Positions 5,427 through 48,742 of a DNA stretch of 64,000 bases are shown piece by piece. Origin of the DNA: a bacterium (GTDB lineage Bacteria > Patescibacteriota > Dojkabacteria > JAKAPS01 > JAJZLI01); NCBI GenBank assembly GCA_021816845.1, contig JAKAWT010000001.1, positions 134,087-198,086 on the forward strand. Reading direction: 5' to 3'. Position 1 is the first letter of the stretch, and each line of letters begins with the position of its first letter. The notes below the pieces were generated by a model that worked only from the letters and a program-made list of their open reading frames with translations, was not told the origin of the DNA and did no database searches. The translations under genes and the position numbers were made by a program.

Positions 5427-7094
5427 TTATATACCTTCTTCTTGCCATATCTCCAAATTATTACCTATAAGTTTTAGAAAGTTGACATTATACAAAGATA
5501 TATATTTTAAATTATATAGAATTTTGACAGCTGGATAATATGGATCACAACCTCCAAGATCTCTATAATCATATATACCATTATATCCTATTAAACTGCC
5601 ATTGATGACTAATTGTTTATAATTTCTCAAAGTAGTACTGTTAGCTCCTCCATATGAACCATTTGTCCCACCAACACATACAGGTTGTACAGGTGGTTCA
5701 CACCCTGGTGCAGAACCACCTGAGGTGCATAAAAGTCCACTCCAGGTAACAGTTGTGCTACCAGAACAATTAGCATATTTGGTAGACTTTACTGTAAAAG
5801 TTATTGGTGTATTAGGCACGGAACTAGGATCACCTTCTGATACATTAGTAGGAGAACCACTATATACTACAGAACTTGTAGACACAGAACCAGTATTAGA
5901 TGATATATCTAGCGTGTCACCATTAGGTGCAAGCACCCCATTAAGTTTTTCTGTAATACCCAAAGTAGTATCCCCACCTACTGTAGGATTTGAGGGACTA
6001 GCAGATACTATTATTGAACATGTACTGCTACTACCACCTCCTCCCCACTTTATAGTAATCTGACCAGAACAATTAGAATACCTCCCAGATGCCACTGTAA
6101 ATATAACAGTATTGGGGGACGACCCTGGATCATACTCTGTTGGATTAGATATCCCTAAGCTATTTGTTGTTGGATTTGTTTTGGTTGGAGTACCATCATT
6201 TGATGTTATCTTTAAAGTATCTCCACTTACATTAGACCCATTATATGTCTCGTGGATAGTGAAAATTGTATAGCTGCCTGACGCAGGATTTGTTGTGCTA
6301 GCAGATACTGTTATTGAACACCCCGTTGGTGATGTAGACGCATTTGTATATATTTTAACAATAAAATTATATGTAATCCCATTGGAGAATATAAGATTCC
6401 CTAGACTAATACTGTTGCTAGATAATCCTTGTCCATTTGTCTCTGTGATACTAACACTATTATAACTACTTGGTGGAGATATACTCAATGTAAAAGGTGA
6501 GAACCCACAATCTAGATAACCATTGGAAGACAAATAATAAACACCGTTACTATTAGTTGATCCAGAAGCTGAATAATATTTGGAAGGTGCAGCTCCAGGC
6601 CCATTTTGAACTCCAGGACGTGGATAAGTAGGATACTGGTAATTATTTTCTATACCCTGATTTATACTATAGTTTCCGTTAGCAAAATCCCAGCATCTAT
6701 ATCCAGATTCACAACCAGAGCCCTGAAACCAATAATTCCAATATGGCCCCCATCCACCATATGAAGTGGAATCTCCACCAAATCCACTGGGAGGGGTACT
6801 TCTTATAGTAATACCTACAGTATTATACTTACTTACTGTACCATTGGATGCGTAATCATATGCTGTAACATTTATTCCTACACTACCATCAGTTACAGGT
6901 ATATTACTGTTACAATTGTCTCCATTCGCAGGTACATTAGTACACTCCCAATAATTACTACTCTGACCTCCACTTCCTCCAACTATAGATGCATGTGCCG
7001 GTTTTGCAGATACAGAAGACAACACTAAAAATACAGTAAAAACCAATAAAATAATACTTAATAATCTTTTACTTATAACAAAAATATTCATCAT
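5427..7094 (-). CDS. Large secreted Gly/Ser/Thr/Asn-rich, Cys-containing protein with two tandem ~100 aa repeat domains.
   Basis: Signal peptide ending ...VSAKPAHAS. Internal repeat CSITVSAS...NCSGQITIKWGG / CSIIVSAS...NCSGSTTVTWSG. It overlaps the upstream gene by 4 nt. Confidence 0.6.
   Translation of the reverse strand: MMNIFVISKRLLSIILLVFTVFLVLSSVSAKPAHASIVGGSGGQSSNYWECTNVPANGDNCNSNIPVTDGSVGINVTAYDYASNGTVSKYNTVGITIRSTPPSGFGGDSTSYGGWGPYWNYWFQGSGCESGYRCWDFANGNYSINQGIENNYQYPTYPRPGVQNGPGAAPSKYYSASGSTNSNGVYYLSSNGYLDCGFSPFTLSISPPSSYNSVSITETNGQGLSSNSISLGNLIFSNGITYNFIVKIYTNASTSPTGCSITVSASTTNPASGSYTIFTIHETYNGSNVSGDTLKITSNDGTPTKTNPTTNSLGISNPTEYDPGSSPNTVIFTVASGRYSNCSGQITIKWGGGGSSSTCSIIVSASPSNPTVGGDTTLGITEKLNGVLAPNGDTLDISSNTGSVSTSSVVYSGSPTNVSEGDPSSVPNTPITFTVKSTKYANCSGSTTVTWSGLLCTSGGSAPGCEPPVQPVCVGGTNGSYGGANSTTLRNYKQLVINGSLIGYNGIYDYRDLGGCDPYYPAVKILYNLKYISLYNVNFLKLIGNNLEIWQEEGI
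5730..6320 (-). repeat. Two tandem ~100-codon intragenic repeats (protein residues about 259-455 of the secreted protein).
   Basis: The repeat units align residue by residue (CSIxVSAS..NP..G..T...I.E..NG...GDTL.I.SN.G......NCSG..T..W.G). Confidence 0.6.
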
Positions 7095-16981: not shown

Positions 16982-18391
16982 TTAGATACAACAGCTAACG
17001 CTAGATAGATCACGTATAGAAGATTGAGCTACTAATTTTATCAATTCTGAAAGAGTCGGGAATATATGAATTGTATCTGCTACTTCTGATACTGTCATCT
17101 TATTTTTAACTATCATGACAGCCTCATGTATGATATCTACGGCATCCTTAGATATTAAATGCATTCCTAGTATTTCCTTTGTATCATGATCAATAACCAT
17201 TTTTATATACCCTCTAGTATCTCCTATCAACAAAGCCTTTGGTACCTTATCTAAAGTTAAAGATAAGCAGGAACAATTAAGATTAGTTTGAAAAACATCT
17301 TCATCTCTTAGTCCTACACCTGCAACAGATGGTGTAGCAAAAATTGCATAAGGAACTTCATCATAGTTTATAAAAGAATGATTCCCCTGAATAATATTTA
17401 AAACTGCAAGAGAACCTTCTCTTCCAGCTGTAGTTTCCATTCTTTTTTGTACATCTATAACATCGCCAACAGCGTATATACTAGGATTTGAAGTTTGTAA
17501 ATACTTATTAACCTTAATAGAATGATTTTCTGATATATCAACATTCACTTTATCCAGATTTAAAGATTCTATATTTGGATTTTTTCCTATTGCAAAAAGA
17601 ACTTTATCAAAAACAATTTCAGACTCCCCATCTGGATTTTCTACAAAAGCTCGTCCAGTTTCATCTTTATTTTTTTCAAACCTAGAAACCTTTCCATTCT
17701 TTATTATATCAATGCCGTCTTCTTTAAGATATTTCTCCAAATATTCAGATATTTCTGGTTCTGTTCCTTTAATAAGTCTATCTCCTCTTGTAATCAGAGT
17801 AACTTTACTACCAAAGTGTGAAAACATTTGTGCAAATTCTACACCAACAGCGCCACCTCCTATTATAGTTAACTTAGAAGGTAATTTCTTTAAATGAAGA
17901 GCCTCAATATGTGTCATATAATCTATACTTTCTACACCCTTTACATCAATAAGCTTTGCTTTTGAACCAGTTGCTATTACAAATTTTTCTCCTTTTATTT
18001 TTTTTCCTGATATATCTACTTCATTTTCAGAAATAAATGAAGCTTTCCCTTTAATAAAATCAACATGAGGAAGTTTTCTAAGAACCTGTTCATATTTTTC
18101 ATTCCTCATATTATCCACAATATTTAATTGTGAATGAACAATATCTTCAAAATCAAATTGGACATTTTTAATTTTTATAGAATTAAATCTGGGATTTTTA
18201 GATTCAAATATATACTCTGCATTCTCTATCATATATTTACTAGGAACACAGCCTACATTTACACACGTACCCCCTAAAGGAAGACCACTATTTATAATTA
18301 AAGTATCTACGTTTAACTCATTTGCCTTTATAGCGGCAGCAAAACCTCCTGCACCTCCACCTATTATTATTAACTTATATGAATCTTTCAT
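16982..18391 (-). CDS. merA: Mercuric-reductase-like flavoprotein disulfide oxidoreductase. It has the MerA core without the NmerA domain. The active site is GGTCVNVGCVPSK and there is a C-terminal -SCCI dithiol.
   Basis: N-terminal GGGAGG FAD motif. Redox-active CVNVGC followed by VPSK. The vicinal Cys-Cys two residues from the C-terminus is a MerA hallmark. It lies in an operon with thiol-transfer proteins and an ArsR regulator. Confidence 0.6.
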   Translation of the reverse strand: MKDSYKLIIIGGGAGGFAAAIKANELNVDTLIINSGLPLGGTCVNVGCVPSKYMIENAEYIFESKNPRFNSIKIKNVQFDFEDIVHSQLNIVDNMRNEKYEQVLRKLPHVDFIKGKASFISENEVDISGKKIKGEKFVIATGSKAKLIDVKGVESIDYMTHIEALHLKKLPSKLTIIGGGAVGVEFAQMFSHFGSKVTLITRGDRLIKGTEPEISEYLEKYLKEDGIDIIKNGKVSRFEKNKDETGRAFVENPDGESEIVFDKVLFAIGKNPNIESLNLDKVNVDISENHSIKVNKYLQTSNPSIYAVGDVIDVQKRMETTAGREGSLAVLNIIQGNHSFINYDEVPYAIFATPSVAGVGLRDEDVFQTNLNCSCLSLTLDKVPKALLIGDTRGYIKMVIDHDTKEILGMHLISKDAVDIIHEAVMIVKNKMTVSEVADTIHIFPTLSELIKLVAQSSIRDLSSVSCCI

Positions 18392-19092
18392 AGTATTTTT
18401 AAACTAAAATAAGAACTTAATTGGTAATATATAATGTATAATCCTGCTAAAATCATTATTACCCCTGCAATTTTATTAACAAATTTTCTATATCTGAACA
18501 ATTTATCTTCTATAAAAGTATTAGATACTGCAAGAAGAAAAGATAATAGAAGAGAAATCAGAAATACTCCAGCAAGATATGATAGACCTACTACAATCGT
18601 ATTAAAATAGTTTTTCTCAATAAAGGTTGACAGTACAACTGATATAAACAATGGAAAAGAACACCCTAAAGATACTAATCCATATAATAAACCAAACAAA
18701 TAAATAGATAGAATATTGTTATTTTTCTTTACTTTTTTATCTACGTCAGATTGGAATTGGTGAAATATATTCAAAGATAATCCTCTATTTATAAGTGTAG
18801 AAATCCCTAAGCATATAATTATTATCCCAATAAAAACAGTAATTACAGGAATTACATTAATAATTATATTTCCAAATACAAAAATAATAATAGCAAATAT
18901 TATAAAAATTGTTGAAAACCCTAAAGCTAGAGCGATACCTCTAAACAAACCAAGATAAATTTTTTTCCAAGATTTATCCTCATTACTTTTAATGTAAAAT
19001 CCTATATATGCAGGAATCATCCCAACAGAACAAGGAGATAAAAAAGACAATATTCCTGCACTAAATGCTAAAGATATTAATATATCTGACAT
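18388..19092 (-). CDS. ccdA: CcdA/DsbD-family transmembrane thiol-disulfide transfer protein.
   Basis: Six TM helices. Conserved Cys in LSPCSVGMIP and a second Cys in a later helix (LGCSFP). It overlaps merA by 4 nt. Confidence 0.7.
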   Translation of the reverse strand: MSDILISLAFSAGILSFLSPCSVGMIPAYIGFYIKSNEDKSWKKIYLGLFRGIALALGFSTIFIIFAIIIFVFGNIIINVIPVITVFIGIIIICLGISTLINRGLSLNIFHQFQSDVDKKVKKNNNILSIYLFGLLYGLVSLGCSFPLFISVVLSTFIEKNYFNTIVVGLSYLAGVFLISLLLSFLLAVSNTFIEDKLFRYRKFVNKIAGVIMILAGLYIIYYQLSSYFSLKIL

Positions 19093-19096
19093 ATAG

Positions 19097-19639
19097 TTAT
19101 GATATAGAAGATAAAACCTTTCTAAGAGAACTTTCAGAAGGTAAAACTTTACTGTATACTAAATCTCCGTTTTTATTAATTATATAAACCATATCAAGAC
19201 TAGTAACTTTATAATCTTCTAAAAATGTATTACTTTTTGCTATGACATAAGATACTCGACCATTACCGTTAGTTATTGAATTGATCCATGGCATTAATTC
19301 TGAATATGTATCTATGCTATTTATATCTACTCCATAAAACTTCACATTATTGTATAAGGACGATATTTTTGATAATTCTTTTGATAGTACAGCACAATCT
19401 GCACATCCAGCCTCTATAGTGAATAACACCTGTGCTTTGCTACTTACTCCACCAATATTTACTAATTGATTATTACTATTCATAAAAGATACTACTGGAG
19501 CTATCACTTTGACTGTTTTATTAGTAGTATTCCCTCTTAAAGAACTTCCAGAATTTACTACAAGTATTAATAAGACTATAAATATTACCACACCAACCAT
19601 TATTAATATTACATTTCTACTAGTATTTTTCTTGCTCAT
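19097..19639 (-). CDS. Membrane-anchored thioredoxin-fold protein (TlpA/ResA-like) with a CxxC motif (CADC).
   Basis: N-terminal TM, then a thioredoxin-like domain with AGCADCAV. Confidence 0.6.
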   Translation of the reverse strand: MSKKNTSRNVILIMVGVVIFIVLLILVVNSGSSLRGNTTNKTVKVIAPVVSFMNSNNQLVNIGGVSSKAQVLFTIEAGCADCAVLSKELSKISSLYNNVKFYGVDINSIDTYSELMPWINSITNGNGRVSYVIAKSNTFLEDYKVTSLDMVYIINKNGDLVYSKVLPSESSLRKVLSSIS

Positions 19640-19955
19640 AATTTAAAAATAAAAAATCAATAAAATTAGAAAATTTTTCATCTTTCATAGAATATAGTTT
19701 CTGCCTTGATACTCTTTTAAAATCCACCACATTATTATCTCTAAGCTTTGAAAGCATGTGTGAGACATTAGAAATGGAGCTTCCGACAATATTTGCAATA
19801 TCAGTAACATTCATCTCTGGATAATACCTTAATATGTAACAAATTTTTAAAGTTGTAATATCTCCAAAAACATTACATTCCTGAGAACAAGACAAGATTT
19901 TAGTATTATTACCTAGATTTCTTTTTAATTTTTTAATGTCGACACTTGAATACAT
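19620..19955 (-). CDS. ArsR/SmtB-family metalloregulatory transcriptional repressor.
   Basis: Winged-helix HTH VTDIANIVGSSISNVSHMLSKL. A Cys cluster LSCSQEC upstream of the HTH. The ORF-track start at 19961 is TTG. The first ATG is at 19955. Confidence 0.7.
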   Translation of the reverse strand: MYSSVDIKKLKRNLGNNTKILSCSQECNVFGDITTLKICYILRYYPEMNVTDIANIVGSSISNVSHMLSKLRDNNVVDFKRVSRQKLYSMKDEKFSNFIDFLFLNYEQEKY

Positions 19956-19961
19956 ATTCAA
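19946..19961. promoter_or_regulatory. Palindromic operator TTGAATACATATTCAA (core TGAA-N6-TTCA) centred on the start codon of the minus-strand ArsR gene.
   Basis: Perfect 7-2-7 inverted repeat. It matches the TGAA-N6-TTCA core of known ArsR/SmtB operators such as the CzrA/SmtB 12-2-12 sites. Confidence 0.55.
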
Positions 19962-19963
19962 AT

Positions 19964-19990
19964 ATTATACTTAAATATAAGATATGTCAA
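19964..19990 (-). promoter_or_regulatory. Sigma-70-type promoter for the minus-strand ArsR-Trx-CcdA-MerA operon: TTGACA-N15-TATAAT. It predicts a leaderless or near-leaderless transcript.
   Basis: The reverse complement reads TTGACA (19990-19985) and TATAAT (19969-19964). The -10 ends about 9 nt upstream of the ATG. Confidence 0.5.
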
Positions 19991-20037
19991 GCTCATACTT
20001 TATATCTGGACTAGAGCTTTTAAGATATATAAACGTA

Positions 20038-20064
20038 TTGACAATATTACATAAAAGATATAAT
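20038..20064 (+). promoter_or_regulatory. Sigma-70-type promoter for the plus-strand ArsR/CadC-like gene: TTGACA-N15-TATAAT.
   Basis: TTGACA at 20038-20043 and TATAAT at 20059-20064. It abuts the operator palindrome and lies about 10 nt upstream of the ATG. Confidence 0.5.
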
Positions 20065-20086
20065 ACATGAACATATGTTCATGTAT
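20063..20086. promoter_or_regulatory. Perfect 24-bp palindrome ATACATGAACATATGTTCATGTAT (core TGAA-N6-TTCA) overlapping the -10 element, the transcription start and the ATG of the plus-strand ArsR/CadC-like gene.
   Basis: The sequence is exactly self-complementary. Its core is identical in form to the ArsR/SmtB operator consensus. Confidence 0.6.
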
Positions 20087-20413
20087 AATAATTGTAGATG
20101 CTCTAAAGAGTCAAATTGTTGCAGATATACTGATAATCAAATGTCATATGTTGGAGAACAATTGAAATTAGTCAGTGTTAAAGCGAGACTTAATTTATTA
20201 TTTCTTCTTGAGAATAAAACTCACTGTGTTTCTGATTTGATGGAGCATACTAATCTCTCACAAAGCCTTATTTCTCACCATTTATCAGATTTAGAGAAAT
20301 CAGGATTTGTCAATTCTAAAAAAGATGGGAGATTTGTTGAATATTCATTGACGCAAAAAGGTGAAGAAATTATTAAAAACATATCAAATATAATAGACAA
20401 GGAGGTGATGTAA
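20075..20413 (+). CDS. ArsR/SmtB-family metalloregulator with a CadC-like N-terminal Cys cluster (CRCSKESNCC) and an alpha3 Cys (THCVSDL).
   Basis: HTH LSQSLISHHLSDLEKSGFV. Two thiolate clusters positioned as in CadC. The alternative start is the ATG at 20081. Confidence 0.7.
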   Translation: MFMYNNCRCSKESNCCRYTDNQMSYVGEQLKLVSVKARLNLLFLLENKTHCVSDLMEHTNLSQSLISHHLSDLEKSGFVNSKKDGRFVEYSLTQKGEEIIKNISNIIDKEVM

Positions 20414-20415
20414 TT

Positions 20416-20559
20416 ATGATGAATAAAAAACACTGTTGCGGTGGAGAAAACAAACATATGAATATAGATACAATGTCTAAAGAGAATCTTATTCAAAAAA
20501 AAGAAAGGCTTGAGGAAAGATTAGCAGAAATATCAGAAGCTATTTCAAAAGCTGAATAA
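20416..20559 (+). CDS. Small 47-aa protein with an HCCGG motif and a charged helical tail. It is a candidate metal-binding peptide co-transcribed with the ArsR/CadC-like regulator.
   Basis: Strong Shine-Dalgarno GGAGGTGA 7 nt upstream of the ATG. The ORF is immediately followed by a hairpin terminator. It is not in the ORF track because it falls below the length cutoff. Confidence 0.4.
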   Translation: MMNKKHCCGGENKHMNIDTMSKENLIQKKERLEERLAEISEAISKAE

Positions 20560-20576
20560 GCCATATTATATGGATA

Positions 20577-20601
20577 GCAGAAGAGCTCTTCTGCTATTTG
20601 T
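20577..20601 (+). terminator. Rho-independent terminator. The perfect palindrome AGCAGAAGAGCTCTTCTGCT is followed by ATTTG.
   Basis: An 8-bp GC-containing stem with a 4-nt loop and a weak T tract, directly after the small ORF. Confidence 0.45.
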
Positions 20602-46950: not shown

Positions 46951-47823
46951 ATGGTATTAACAGCTACTATAACAGTATTATTTTATGCATTTCTATTAGG
47001 CCTAGTTCATGGGATAACCCCAGATGAACACACCTGGCCTATAACCTTCTCTTATGCAATAGGAAGTTTTTCATCTAGAAAAGGTTTATATGTAGCTATA
47101 CTATTTTCATTAGCATTCACGGTGCAGAGAGCGATAGCATCAGAGATTGCTTATTTTGCACTTATAAATTGGGCGCAATTTCCATCTTTGAATTATTATG
47201 TATATTTAATAGTAGGTTTAGCAATGTTTTTAGTAGGAATATATGTTTTAAGATTCAATAAGATATTTCATATCGAACTTCTTCCTTCTTCATGGATAGG
47301 TAAACATAAACATCATGAATTTGAGGATACACCAAGACAAATAAAACCTTCTATGGCACTTTTACATGGATTTATAGCAGGATGGGGATTTGGTGCTTTT
47401 GCATTGATATTATACACTGTACTTGTGCCAAAAATGCCAAATATGTATGTAGCGTTCCTACCTGGAGTATTTTTTGGATTAGGAACAATGTTTGTACAAG
47501 CTATTTTCGGAAGCATTTTTGGAAGGTGGATTAGAAATATGAAAATTCCAGAATCAGAAGGATTAAAATTGGCATCTAAAGTTGCAGGTAATACGCTTTT
47601 CGGGGGTGGAATAGTTTTTATATTAGGAGGAATGTTTGGACTTTTATTTCCTAGGATAGCAAATCTACATATTGTTACACCAATAAATGTACACAATCTA
47701 CATAACTTAGGATTAGCATTTGTTATGGTTATGACTACAGTTTTGTTTATAGGCGTAGGATCTATATATATAAATATGCATAAAATAAAAGAAAAATACC
47801 AAAATACAAATGAAACCCCTTAA
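46951..47823 (+). CDS. Integral membrane protein. It may be a NicO/HoxN-like metal-ion transporter.
   Basis: About 7 TM. The first helix carries HGITPDEH and a later helix carries LLHGFIAGWG, which resembles NicO-type repeats. The call is weak. Confidence 0.3.
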   Translation: MVLTATITVLFYAFLLGLVHGITPDEHTWPITFSYAIGSFSSRKGLYVAILFSLAFTVQRAIASEIAYFALINWAQFPSLNYYVYLIVGLAMFLVGIYVLRFNKIFHIELLPSSWIGKHKHHEFEDTPRQIKPSMALLHGFIAGWGFGAFALILYTVLVPKMPNMYVAFLPGVFFGLGTMFVQAIFGSIFGRWIRNMKIPESEGLKLASKVAGNTLFGGGIVFILGGMFGLLFPRIANLHIVTPINVHNLHNLGLAFVMVMTTVLFIGVGSIYINMHKIKEKYQNTNETP

Positions 47824-48742
47824 TAAAAATCAAATCAGATATATTGCTTCGTATATAACTAAAAATAAGGAAAAATTACTGAATATAAATTCATCTATTA
47901 TAACTGATGATATCAAAACTCTAGACAATAATGAGGAGAAGATAGTTATAGGTATTGGAGGATCACATATATACTATACTAAGGTAAAAAACACAGAAAT
48001 TTTAAAAGAAGATATTATAAGATTCCCAAGTAATCAAGAACAATTTTTTGAATACATAGTAAAATATGGGAGAGAAAAATTATATATTACCGATAAAATG
48101 GATAAGTTAAATATAATATTTTCTTACCCTTTTAAATCAATAAGGTCCAATGGGTATATTGATGGTATATATGAGAAAGTTGATATAATATCTAAAGAAA
48201 TACCTTTTACAAATATTAGTTTTTCAATTAATAAAAAATTTAGGGAAATTATTAAACAGGATATAAATATAAACGTTGTTAATGATGCGGTAGCAAGTAA
48301 TATTTACAATTATTATAAAAATCCCAATTATGATACATATATATCAATATTATCAGGAACAGGTGTAAATCTATCTTATATAAAGGATGGCTTCTTTATA
48401 AACTCTGAAATTGGTAGGTTAAAGATGGCAGATTTTGAATCTCGATTCTTTGGATCTGGATTCATCCAAGATAAACTTTTGGAAGAATATATTTCTTATA
48501 AGGCTTTAAGTAAATATAATTTATCATATGTAGAAATTGCCTCTATTGCAGCATCATATACAACAGCCATCATAATGGCCTTCATTGATAGAAATAAACA
48601 TACCTCTTTAATAGGACAAGGTTCATTCATAACTAAAAATCATATTTTCTATGAAGAGTTAAATTATAATCTTAGAGAGTTTAAAAACACAGTAATATCT
48701 AAAGATAATAAAGCTGATATAAAGGGTGCGTCTTTGTTATAG
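47810..48742 (+). CDS. Hexokinase-family sugar kinase.
   Basis: IGIGGSHIYYTKV (phosphate 1), FSYPFKS (matches LGFTFSYP), VVNDAVASNIYNYY (NDTVGTL-like) and ILSGTGVN (GTGVN adenosine motif). The motif order matches hexokinases. Confidence 0.55.
   Translation: MKPLNKNQIRYIASYITKNKEKLLNINSSIITDDIKTLDNNEEKIVIGIGGSHIYYTKVKNTEILKEDIIRFPSNQEQFFEYIVKYGREKLYITDKMDKLNIIFSYPFKSIRSNGYIDGIYEKVDIISKEIPFTNISFSINKKFREIIKQDININVVNDAVASNIYNYYKNPNYDTYISILSGTGVNLSYIKDGFFINSEIGRLKMADFESRFFGSGFIQDKLLEEYISYKALSKYNLSYVEIASIAASYTTAIIMAFIDRNKHTSLIGQGSFITKNHIFYEELNYNLREFKNTVISKDNKADIKGASLL

Follow-up and report, generated by a model that had tools for sequence, protein, structure and literature searches.

In the SmtB, ZiaR, CzrA and AztR systems the operator is an imperfect 12-2-12 inverted repeat with a TGAACA..TGTTCA core, as in the published SmtB/ArsR site AATACCTGAACA-GA-TGTTCAAGTATT; it usually lies between the -10 element and the start of the regulated gene or overlaps the transcription start site (TSS), the repressor is encoded in the same or in a divergent unit, and metal binding derepresses transcription (PMC8790569). 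Here we analyse a locus of this type, known from its sequence, in a 64,000-nucleotide stretch (the window; GC content about 28%) of contig JAKAWT010000001.1 (assembly GCA_021816845.1, positions 134,087 to 198,086), which is assigned to the Patescibacteria. The window also matches contig DAIBVT010000002.1 of the metagenome-assembled genome GCA_027425355.1, and those ArsR2 homologues for which a source is named bear the label 'Patescibacteria group bacterium'. A 141-bp region (19946-20086) holds the starts of two divergent genes of the ArsR/SmtB family, arsR1 on the minus strand and arsR2 on the plus strand. We think it likely that this region consists of two independent, negatively autoregulated ArsR/SmtB promoter–operator modules placed back to back, P1 for arsR1 and P2 for arsR2. 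Compared with the SmtB, ZiaR, CzrA and AztR systems, the predicted transcripts would have essentially no 5' untranslated region, the dyad centre of the operator coincides with the start codon of the repressor gene, and the right half-site makes up codons 1-3. In contrast with SmtB and CzrA, the window proteins lack the α5 zinc site, and the hosts are Patescibacteria.

The nearest solved structures to both proteins are the α3N thiolate sensors CadC (pI258) and Listeria Lmo1102, with HlyU and SmtB also close, and the ArsR2 family has N-terminal cysteines and an α3 CVC motif like CadC. However, cadO has been reported to diverge from CzrA/SmtB-type operators (bioRxiv 10.64898/2026.05.15.721447), whereas the window sites are of the CzrA/SmtB type; furthermore, the window ArsR2 has CVS in place of CVC, and ArsR1 has no α3 cysteines, carrying instead a C..EC motif and a cysteine in α2. 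ArsR-type repressors of mer operons are already known: the Streptomyces lividans MerR and the Sulfolobus solfataricus mer regulator are described as products of ArsR-family genes found with merA, which repress when Hg is absent (Boyd & Barkay 2012; PMC3466566). The window operon differs from these in encoding thioredoxin (Trx)-like and DsbD-like proteins (MerC in the relative L129) rather than MerT/MerP, and in beginning with the regulator gene, for which a leaderless transcript is predicted. Known repressor genes of the leaderless, autoregulated kind include lambda cI transcribed from PRM and many actinobacterial regulators. They likewise have a -10 element about 7-12 nt 5' of the ATG, no Shine–Dalgarno (SD) sequence and control of their own promoter, but they belong to other protein families; the present genes differ also in that the ATG marks the centre of the operator dyad, an arrangement kept throughout a whole radiation. 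The mechanism is therefore known, being textbook ArsR/SmtB autorepression; what is new is that the operator dyad falls on the start codon of a gene predicted to be leaderless, and that this layout is conserved across Patescibacteria. Our literature search, whose coverage was incomplete so that a prior description is possible, found no description of a start-codon-centred arrangement or of cis-regulatory motifs in the candidate phyla radiation (CPR).

Two probable promoter–operator modules and their conservation

Direct reading of the sequence recovered all hexamers and palindromes listed in an earlier note on this DNA, including operators on both arsR ATG codons. In P1, on the minus strand, the -35 element TTGACA (19985-19990) is followed, after 17 nt, by TAATAT (19962-19967) and by the operator TTGAATACATATTCAA (19946-19961; dyad centre 19953/19954), of the form TTGAAT-N4-ATTCAA. 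P1 carries just this 6-4-6 core, TTGAAT-ACAT-ATTCAA, whose 4-nt spacer is itself non-palindromic, and the arsR1 ATG (19955-19953) lies within it, straddling the dyad centre. In P2, on the plus strand, TTGACA (20038-20043) begins at -37 from the dyad centre and is followed, again after 17 nt, by TAATAC (20061-20066). The P2 operator AATACATGAACA-TA-TGTTCATGTATA (20062-20087; dyad centre 20074/20075) is a 12-2-12 repeat whose arms agree at 11 of 12 positions, near-identical to the published site; its core is a perfect palindrome of 24 bp (20063-20086), which extends to 32 bp (20059-20090) with one mismatch. The A of the arsR2 ATG, at 20075, is the first base past the dyad centre, and the right half-site is read as ATG TTC ATG. 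In both modules the -35 element stands 37 nt from the dyad; 47 bp separate one -35 from the other, and the two operators have no base in common.

These elements suggest how each module might work. A sigma-70-type promoter made of TTGACA, a spacer of about 17 nt and a TAnnnT-type -10 would be overlaid by an inverted repeat that begins at or inside the -10 and, judging by the position of the conserved -35 and -10 elements, spans the predicted TSS; with the repressor's own ATG at the dyad centre, this geometry would leave an mRNA leader of 0 to about 4 nt. In keeping with what is known for this family, an apo-repressor dimer on the palindrome would stop RNA polymerase at the -10 and at the TSS, and a thiophilic metal or metalloid bound by its cysteines would lower its affinity for DNA and let transcription resume. 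P1, under ArsR1, would drive arsR1, the Trx-like and DsbD-like genes and merA, while P2, under ArsR2, would drive arsR2 and a 47-amino-acid (47-aa) Cys-rich peptide. To speak of the start codon as occluded makes no sense for a repressor that binds DNA; what it would cover is the -10 and the TSS.

Consensus-like hexamers are frequent by chance in DNA as AT-rich as this. Nevertheless, TTGACA-N15-TATAAT is matched only twice in the 64 kb, both times at these sites (0.06 expected; none of 100 shuffles reaches two), and the composite TATAAT-A-NN-TGAA-N6-TTCA, with at most one mismatch, has four matches in the window (three exact) against 0.23 expected. The bare TGAA-N6-TTCA core is not enriched (four matches, 3.1 expected), and sigma-70-like promoter matches are at chance level (117 against 121.5 expected in 16 kb), so that the significance of the sites comes from their composite arrangement and, decisively, from their conservation elsewhere. 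The third exact composite match (47880-47902, minus strand) was rejected: it lies within the plus-strand open reading frame (ORF) 47810-48742, is flanked by C/T, lacks both a -35 at a suitable distance and a minus-strand gene downstream of it, and is probably due to chance. No convincing further operator copy was found within the window, where ATGAA-N6-TTCAT and TTGAAT-N4-ATTCAA with one mismatch occur at chance level.

A scan of GTDB species representatives yielded 80 ArsR2-type loci from many Patescibacteria lineages, and in 73 of them TGAA-N6-TTCA lies on the gene start with a TTGACA-like -35 upstream; at least three of the remaining seven are cut at a contig end. The operator is read in two registers. 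In class A (12 loci, including the window ArsR2) the ATG is the first triplet past the dyad centre, with the consensus TTGACAAA-...-TAATATATGAAT.T/ATGTTCATAT (also written TTGACAAA..TAATATATGAAT.TATGTTCATAT) and a -35 at -37 in 10 of the 12. In class B (59 loci, with proteins beginning M(N)MSSY.CC) the dyad centre falls within an in-frame ATG, the consensus being TATATGAATAT/GnGTTCATATA. The ORF is open from the palindromic ATG in 69 of these 71 loci, and an SD-like 4-mer lies upstream in two of them. Many of the loci (L014, L017, L021, L023-L025 and others) come from third-party-annotation metagenome-assembled genomes titled 'uncultured Gammaproteobacteria' or 'Pseudomonadales', titles that may be mislabelled.

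ArsR1 relatives are few (80%, 67% and 39% identity). The four loci L084, L085, L087 and L129, whose flanks have otherwise diverged, share TTGAC[A/C/T]-N17/18-TA[A/C]nAT abutting TTGAAT-N4-[A/G]TTCAA; the -35, kept as TTGACA, TTGACC or TTGACT, stands at an equal distance from the operator, whose 16-mer is invariant in L084, L085 and L087 and reads TTGAATAGTCGTTCAA in L129. Metagenome contigs added nothing to this set: a protein-pattern scan built on the ArsR1 alignment gave 117 pattern matches and no confirmed relative, and a scan for the exact 19-mer operator gave 40 loci, all random, none of which encodes an ArsR1 relative.

These data bear on the idea that the palindromes act as RNA, in the form of a 5' hairpin or terminator, or are mere chance features of AT-rich DNA, which we regard as highly improbable. 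A terminator scan does flag the 24-bp palindrome 20063-20086 together with TATATCTTTT as terminator-like on the minus strand, and AT-rich DNA yields many chance promoter-like matches. However, no minus-strand gene reads into 20063-20086, so that the flag seems incidental, and, given the conserved geometry of the promoter, a transcript would include no more than the right half-site and could not fold into a hairpin. Moreover, the half-sites are conserved as sequence (TGAA and TTCA are invariant) and not through compensatory changes, the motif is kept in GC-rich genomes, for example as cccTTGACAatgccgtcgctttcccaTAACATatgaatatATG in L017, and the composite-motif statistics together with the conservation in 73 of 80 loci exclude chance.

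The -10 elements and the predicted leaderless transcripts

The earlier note had taken as -10 elements two TATAAT hexamers, at 19964-19969 (minus strand) in P1, where it overlaps TAATAT, and at 20059-20064 (plus strand) in P2, each 15 nt from its -35 and at -16..-11 from the dyad centre. Both window -35 elements stand at -37, so that the frame conserved in the families, -14..-9 with a 17-nt spacer, reads TAATAT in P1 and TAATAC in P2. The relative L087, at 88% identity, separates the two frames: its N15 hexamers are TATAAC and TGTAAC, while its N17 hexamers are TAACAT on both sides. For P1, the N15 hexamer reads TATAAC in L085 as well and GGTAAA in L084, and the N17 hexamer reads TAACAT in L085, TAAAAT in L084 (N18) and TACTAT in L129, each abutting TTGAAT. 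Among the ArsR2-type loci, TAnnnT occurs at -14..-9 in 47 of 71 and at -16..-11 in 26 of 71, and relatives of P2 have TAATAT, TATTAT or TAACAT in the conserved frame. A 17-bp spacer is optimal, 15 bp being at the unfavourable edge of the usable 15-19 bp range (PMC12641261); with a sigma-70 definition of TTGACA and TAnnnT 16-18 nt apart, P1 qualifies as TTGACA-17-TAATAT and P2, imperfectly, as TTGACA-17-TAATAC, whereas the N15 pairs lie outside the optimal spacer range. The L087 hexamers, the frame counts and the spacer optimum make the N17 element the better -10 candidate for P1. In P2 the window-specific TATAAT may substitute or compensate for the weak TAATAC. The claim that these are promoters thus holds in one respect, as conservation in relatives argues that both sites are real promoter–operator modules, and fails in another, as the N15 TATAAT, specific to the window, is not the conserved -10.

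A different reading, which we consider unlikely, is that the TTGACA-N15-TATAAT pairs are the functional promoters of a coupled symmetric switch, with either repressor acting on both of them. In its favour, the two N15 pairs match the consensus perfectly and are statistically unexpected, and the defect of the P2 N17 hexamer may mean that TATAAT is the one used there; nevertheless, L087 has lost the N15 TATAAT on both sides and retained TAACAT, and the frame counts and the spacer optimum point the same way. An archaeal TATA/BRE reading, prompted by the AT-rich DNA and the apparent lack of leaders, was dropped: bacterial markers such as BipA/TypA in the window and the assignment to Patescibacteria indicate that bacterial sigma-70 logic applies.

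The start codons themselves are well supported. ArsR2 homologues down to about 45% identity start with MF[I/M]..C.C in the same alignment column, and this conserved N-terminus identifies the ATG at 20075 as the true start of arsR2. ArsR1 relatives start with MYSS, and the gene caller also begins arsR1 at 19955; an upstream TTG at 19961 could not be transcribed, because it is only 1-3 nt past either candidate -10. The published mark of leaderless genes in bacteria is a TANNNT that begins 12 nt 5' of the start codon (PMC3160421), and the TAATAT of P1 begins at exactly this distance. Counted from the end of the -10 hexamer, the A of the start codon is nucleotide seven, where transcription canonically starts, in the window as well as in L084, L085 and L087. 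In P2 the -10 hexamer begins 14 or 16 nt upstream of the ATG, which predicts a TSS at 20071-20075 and a leader of 0-4 nt. From this conserved -10-to-ATG spacing we infer that both genes are transcribed with no leader or almost none, in line with the earlier prediction of leaderless or nearly leaderless transcripts.

The start codon can evidently slide within the operator. In L088 (1780-1815), a relative of ArsR2 at 63% identity, the ATG at the dyad centre has become ACG, the ORF begins at a codon-3 ATG (MYKRCKC), and the -35 is 3 nt closer.

Among 63 long ORFs of the window, an SD-like 4-mer lies 3-12 nt upstream of the first start codon in three, and in 10 when any start in the first 45 codons is allowed. 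The absence of an SD sequence was dropped as evidence for leaderless transcripts in this genome, since 60 of 63 first starts lack such a motif. TATAAT-like hexamers are also seen 3-10 nt 5' of the ATG at several window genes (for example 2250, 11927, 30749 and 59586). Initiation independent of SD sequences seems to be widespread in this genome, and many of its transcripts may be leaderless.

Probable independence of the two modules

The symmetry of the region had suggested a symmetric dual-repressor switch, a claim for which we find no evidence of coupling. No ArsR1, Trx, DsbD or MerA gene lies near any of the 80 ArsR2-type loci, and ArsR2 is absent from the ArsR1-type loci L084, L085 and L129; the divergent pairing occurs only in the window's own strains (L001-L003) and in L087, in which 12 bp between the -35 elements are deleted relative to the window. 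The operator flanks are family-specific, TTGAA..TTCAA for ArsR1 and ATGAA..TTCAT for ArsR2, and go with different recognition helices, SSISNVSHML and LSQSLISHHL respectively. With the pairing so restricted, and flanks and helices specific to each family, the parsimonious view is that two independent modules became juxtaposed in one lineage. Several features would fit coupling: the equal -35-to-dyad distances, the TGAA-N6-TTCA core common to both operators, the S.S..SH.L common to both recognition helices, the crosstalk documented among ArsR-family members with similar operators, and the pairing kept in L087. Against it stand, in addition to the -10 data, the missing pairing at all 80 ArsR2-type and three ArsR1-type loci, the 47 bp between the -35 elements, the lack of operator overlap and the family-specific flanks. 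The phasing of one operator relative to the other was dropped as an argument against coupling, the 12-bp indel of L087 being about one helical turn and thus uninformative.

In the reading of two independent modules, each repressor would act at its own site. Site and gene occur together in 73 of 80 ArsR2-type loci and in all four related ArsR1-type loci, which hints indirectly that the cognate repressor may be the one that binds. It could instead be imagined that both palindromes are bound by one regulator, which would be a third factor or else ArsR2, as the widespread motif belongs to its family, and that ArsR1 has another target or none. The common TGAA-N6-TTCA core would allow this, and ArsR1, which begins MYSS and whose ATG straddles the dyad, resembles class B of the ArsR2 family (MSSY) in N-terminus and operator register. 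We nevertheless judge it very unlikely: L084, L085 and L129, with no ArsR2 gene nearby, still keep TTGAA..TTCAA at their own promoter, a classic pattern where the product of the neighbouring gene regulates itself.

Several observations weigh against our interpretation of two leaderless, separately autoregulated modules. In P2 the conserved-frame hexamer TAATAC lacks the key final T, so that both the -10 and the TSS (20071, 20073 or 20075) are ambiguous, and a leader of 2-4 nt is as likely as none. In L129, a distant ArsR1 relative, the ATG is 4 nt past the operator, implying a leader of about 14 nt, from which it follows that overlap of the start codon with the operator is not obligatory. The lack of SD sequences is, as stated above, uninformative in this genome. 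The two similar operators may be cross-bound, by analogy with CzrA, SmtB and NmtR, which have similar sites and show crosstalk (bioRxiv 10.64898/2026.05.15.721447). Finally, ArsR1 scores 49.6 bits with NF033788, under the 55-bit ArsR/SmtB cutoff, and the window ArsR2 has lost one cysteine of its family's CVC motif (HCVSDL), so that its metal response may be altered.

Sensor types, cargo genes and wider meaning

ArsR1 (19620-19955, minus strand), a divergent CadC-like ArsR/SmtB repressor, matches HTH_5 (8e-6) and PF01022 (26.1 bits, cutoff 22), and its best solved relative is CadC 1u2w (6e-10). ArsR2 (20075-20413, plus strand) is a clearer member of the family (HTH_5 3e-17; PF01022 62.5 bits; NF033788 64.6 bits, cutoff 55), and the two proteins are 35% identical over 57 residues. 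Inspection found none of the α5 zinc-site ligands (Asp/His/His/Glu(His)) in either protein, the C-termini of ArsR2 (LTQKGEEIIKNISNIIDKEVM) and ArsR1 (MKDEKFSNFIDFLFLNYEQEKY) lacking histidine. Candidate cysteine ligands, also from sequence inspection, are C7, C9, C15, C16 and C51 in ArsR2 and C23, C27 and C39 in ArsR1. The ArsR2 family, with N-terminal cysteines (in pairs in the window protein) and α3 HCVCDL (HCVSDL in the window), is α3N-like; in ArsR1 the conserved C..EC precedes α1 (CSQEC here, CARECN in P0037). The description of the operators as CzrA/SmtB-type is thus correct at the DNA level (12-2-12, TGAA-N6-TTCA) and misleading as to the sensors, which are CadC-like thiol proteins.

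ArsR1 is the first gene of a tight minus-strand operon whose other ORFs (16982-19639) abut or overlap: a membrane-anchored Trx/ResA-like CxxC protein (19097-19639), a DsbD/CcdA-like membrane protein (18388-19092; DsbD_2 and DsbD_TM matches) and MerA (16982-18391; TIGR02053 equivalog, 490.9 bits against a cutoff of 454.45), which has both the redox CxxxxC (GGTCVNVGC) and the C-terminal cysteine pair (SCCI). No dedicated Hg transporter (MerT, MerP, MerC, MerF or MerE) was found in the window, where the DsbD_2/DsbD_TM-like and Trx-like proteins stand instead; this suggests a thiol-relay route for Hg(II) uptake or handover. In L129 (1375-2770) the operon consists of an arsR1-like gene, Redoxin, MerC and MerA, which ties the ArsR1 subfamily to mercury resistance. 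From this gene context ArsR1 and P1 probably respond to Hg(II).

The sole cis cargo of P2 is a Cys-rich (HCCGG) coiled-coil ORF of 47 aa (20416-20559, plus strand, in the interval 20398-20559). Its perfect AGGAGG (20400-20405) makes it one of just three first starts with an SD-like motif among the 63 window ORFs. It has a homologue in L016 (2134-2259) and a 57-aa counterpart in L086 (437-610) and L087, and in P0009 it is joined to the C-terminal end of the ArsR by a linker rich in Cys, His and Asp; the peptide may be a metal-binding partner or chaperone. A perfect 20-nt GC-containing palindrome, AGCAGAAGAGCTCTTCTGCT (20576-20595, plus strand), read from the sequence as a hairpin after this ORF, may mark where the operon ends; because of its weak T-run it was not called by the terminator scan. 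Elsewhere, 35 of 38 small ORFs 3' of ArsR2-type genes are Thioredoxin_3, and 28 larger ones include 20 ArsP_1 permeases, four ArsM-like methyltransferases and three DUF2703 proteins. The window ArsR2 has no such Thioredoxin_3, ArsP_1 or ArsM-type cargo. The family's cargo speaks for arsenic or another thiophilic metalloid, not for zinc, and together with the lack of α5 ligands and the proximity to CadC and Lmo1102 it gives no indication of Zn/CzrA-type sensing.

We tentatively propose, as a possibility and not as the more probable case, that the start-codon-centred operator on a leaderless arsR is an ancient, phylum-wide Patescibacteria cassette that fixes the first residues of the repressor, defines CPR promoters and leaderless initiation, and was recruited twice here for cross-regulation. 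A constraint at the DNA level would then set the first 3-4 residues, MFI, MSSY and MYSS being three reading registers of one TTCA half-site, a clean example of an operator constraining the first codons of a protein. The cassette would also allow a CPR sigma-70 promoter (TTGACA-N17-TAnnnT) and leaderless initiation in the CPR to be defined comparatively for the first time, and two paralogous repressors with near-identical operators could cross-regulate the mercury operon together with a second response to thiophilic metals. Most Patescibacteria have not been cultured, and next to nothing is known of their cis-regulation; in a promoter survey, RNA-seq-inferred TSS data were available for only one CPR species (PMC12641261). 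Kept in more than 70 species, the cassette could serve as a portable part for CPR promoter recognition, leaderless translation and the sensing of mercury, arsenic and other thiophilic metals. For the window itself, these results refine known biology and do not overturn it.

Two minor observations were made along the way. The Rfam scan of the window returned tRNAs only; ARAGORN called in addition a tRNA-Asn (anticodon ATT; 6693-6766, minus strand) inside ORF 5427-7094, which lacks Rfam confirmation and is probably a false positive. In L013, a second, different palindrome, GTGAACGT/TCGTTCAC (2855-2880), lies 132 nt upstream of the ArsR2-type gene, seemingly between a minus-strand TTGACA and the -10-like hexamer of a divergent gene; if it is so placed, L013 appears to be another divergent two-operator arrangement, with the operator in the promoter spacer.

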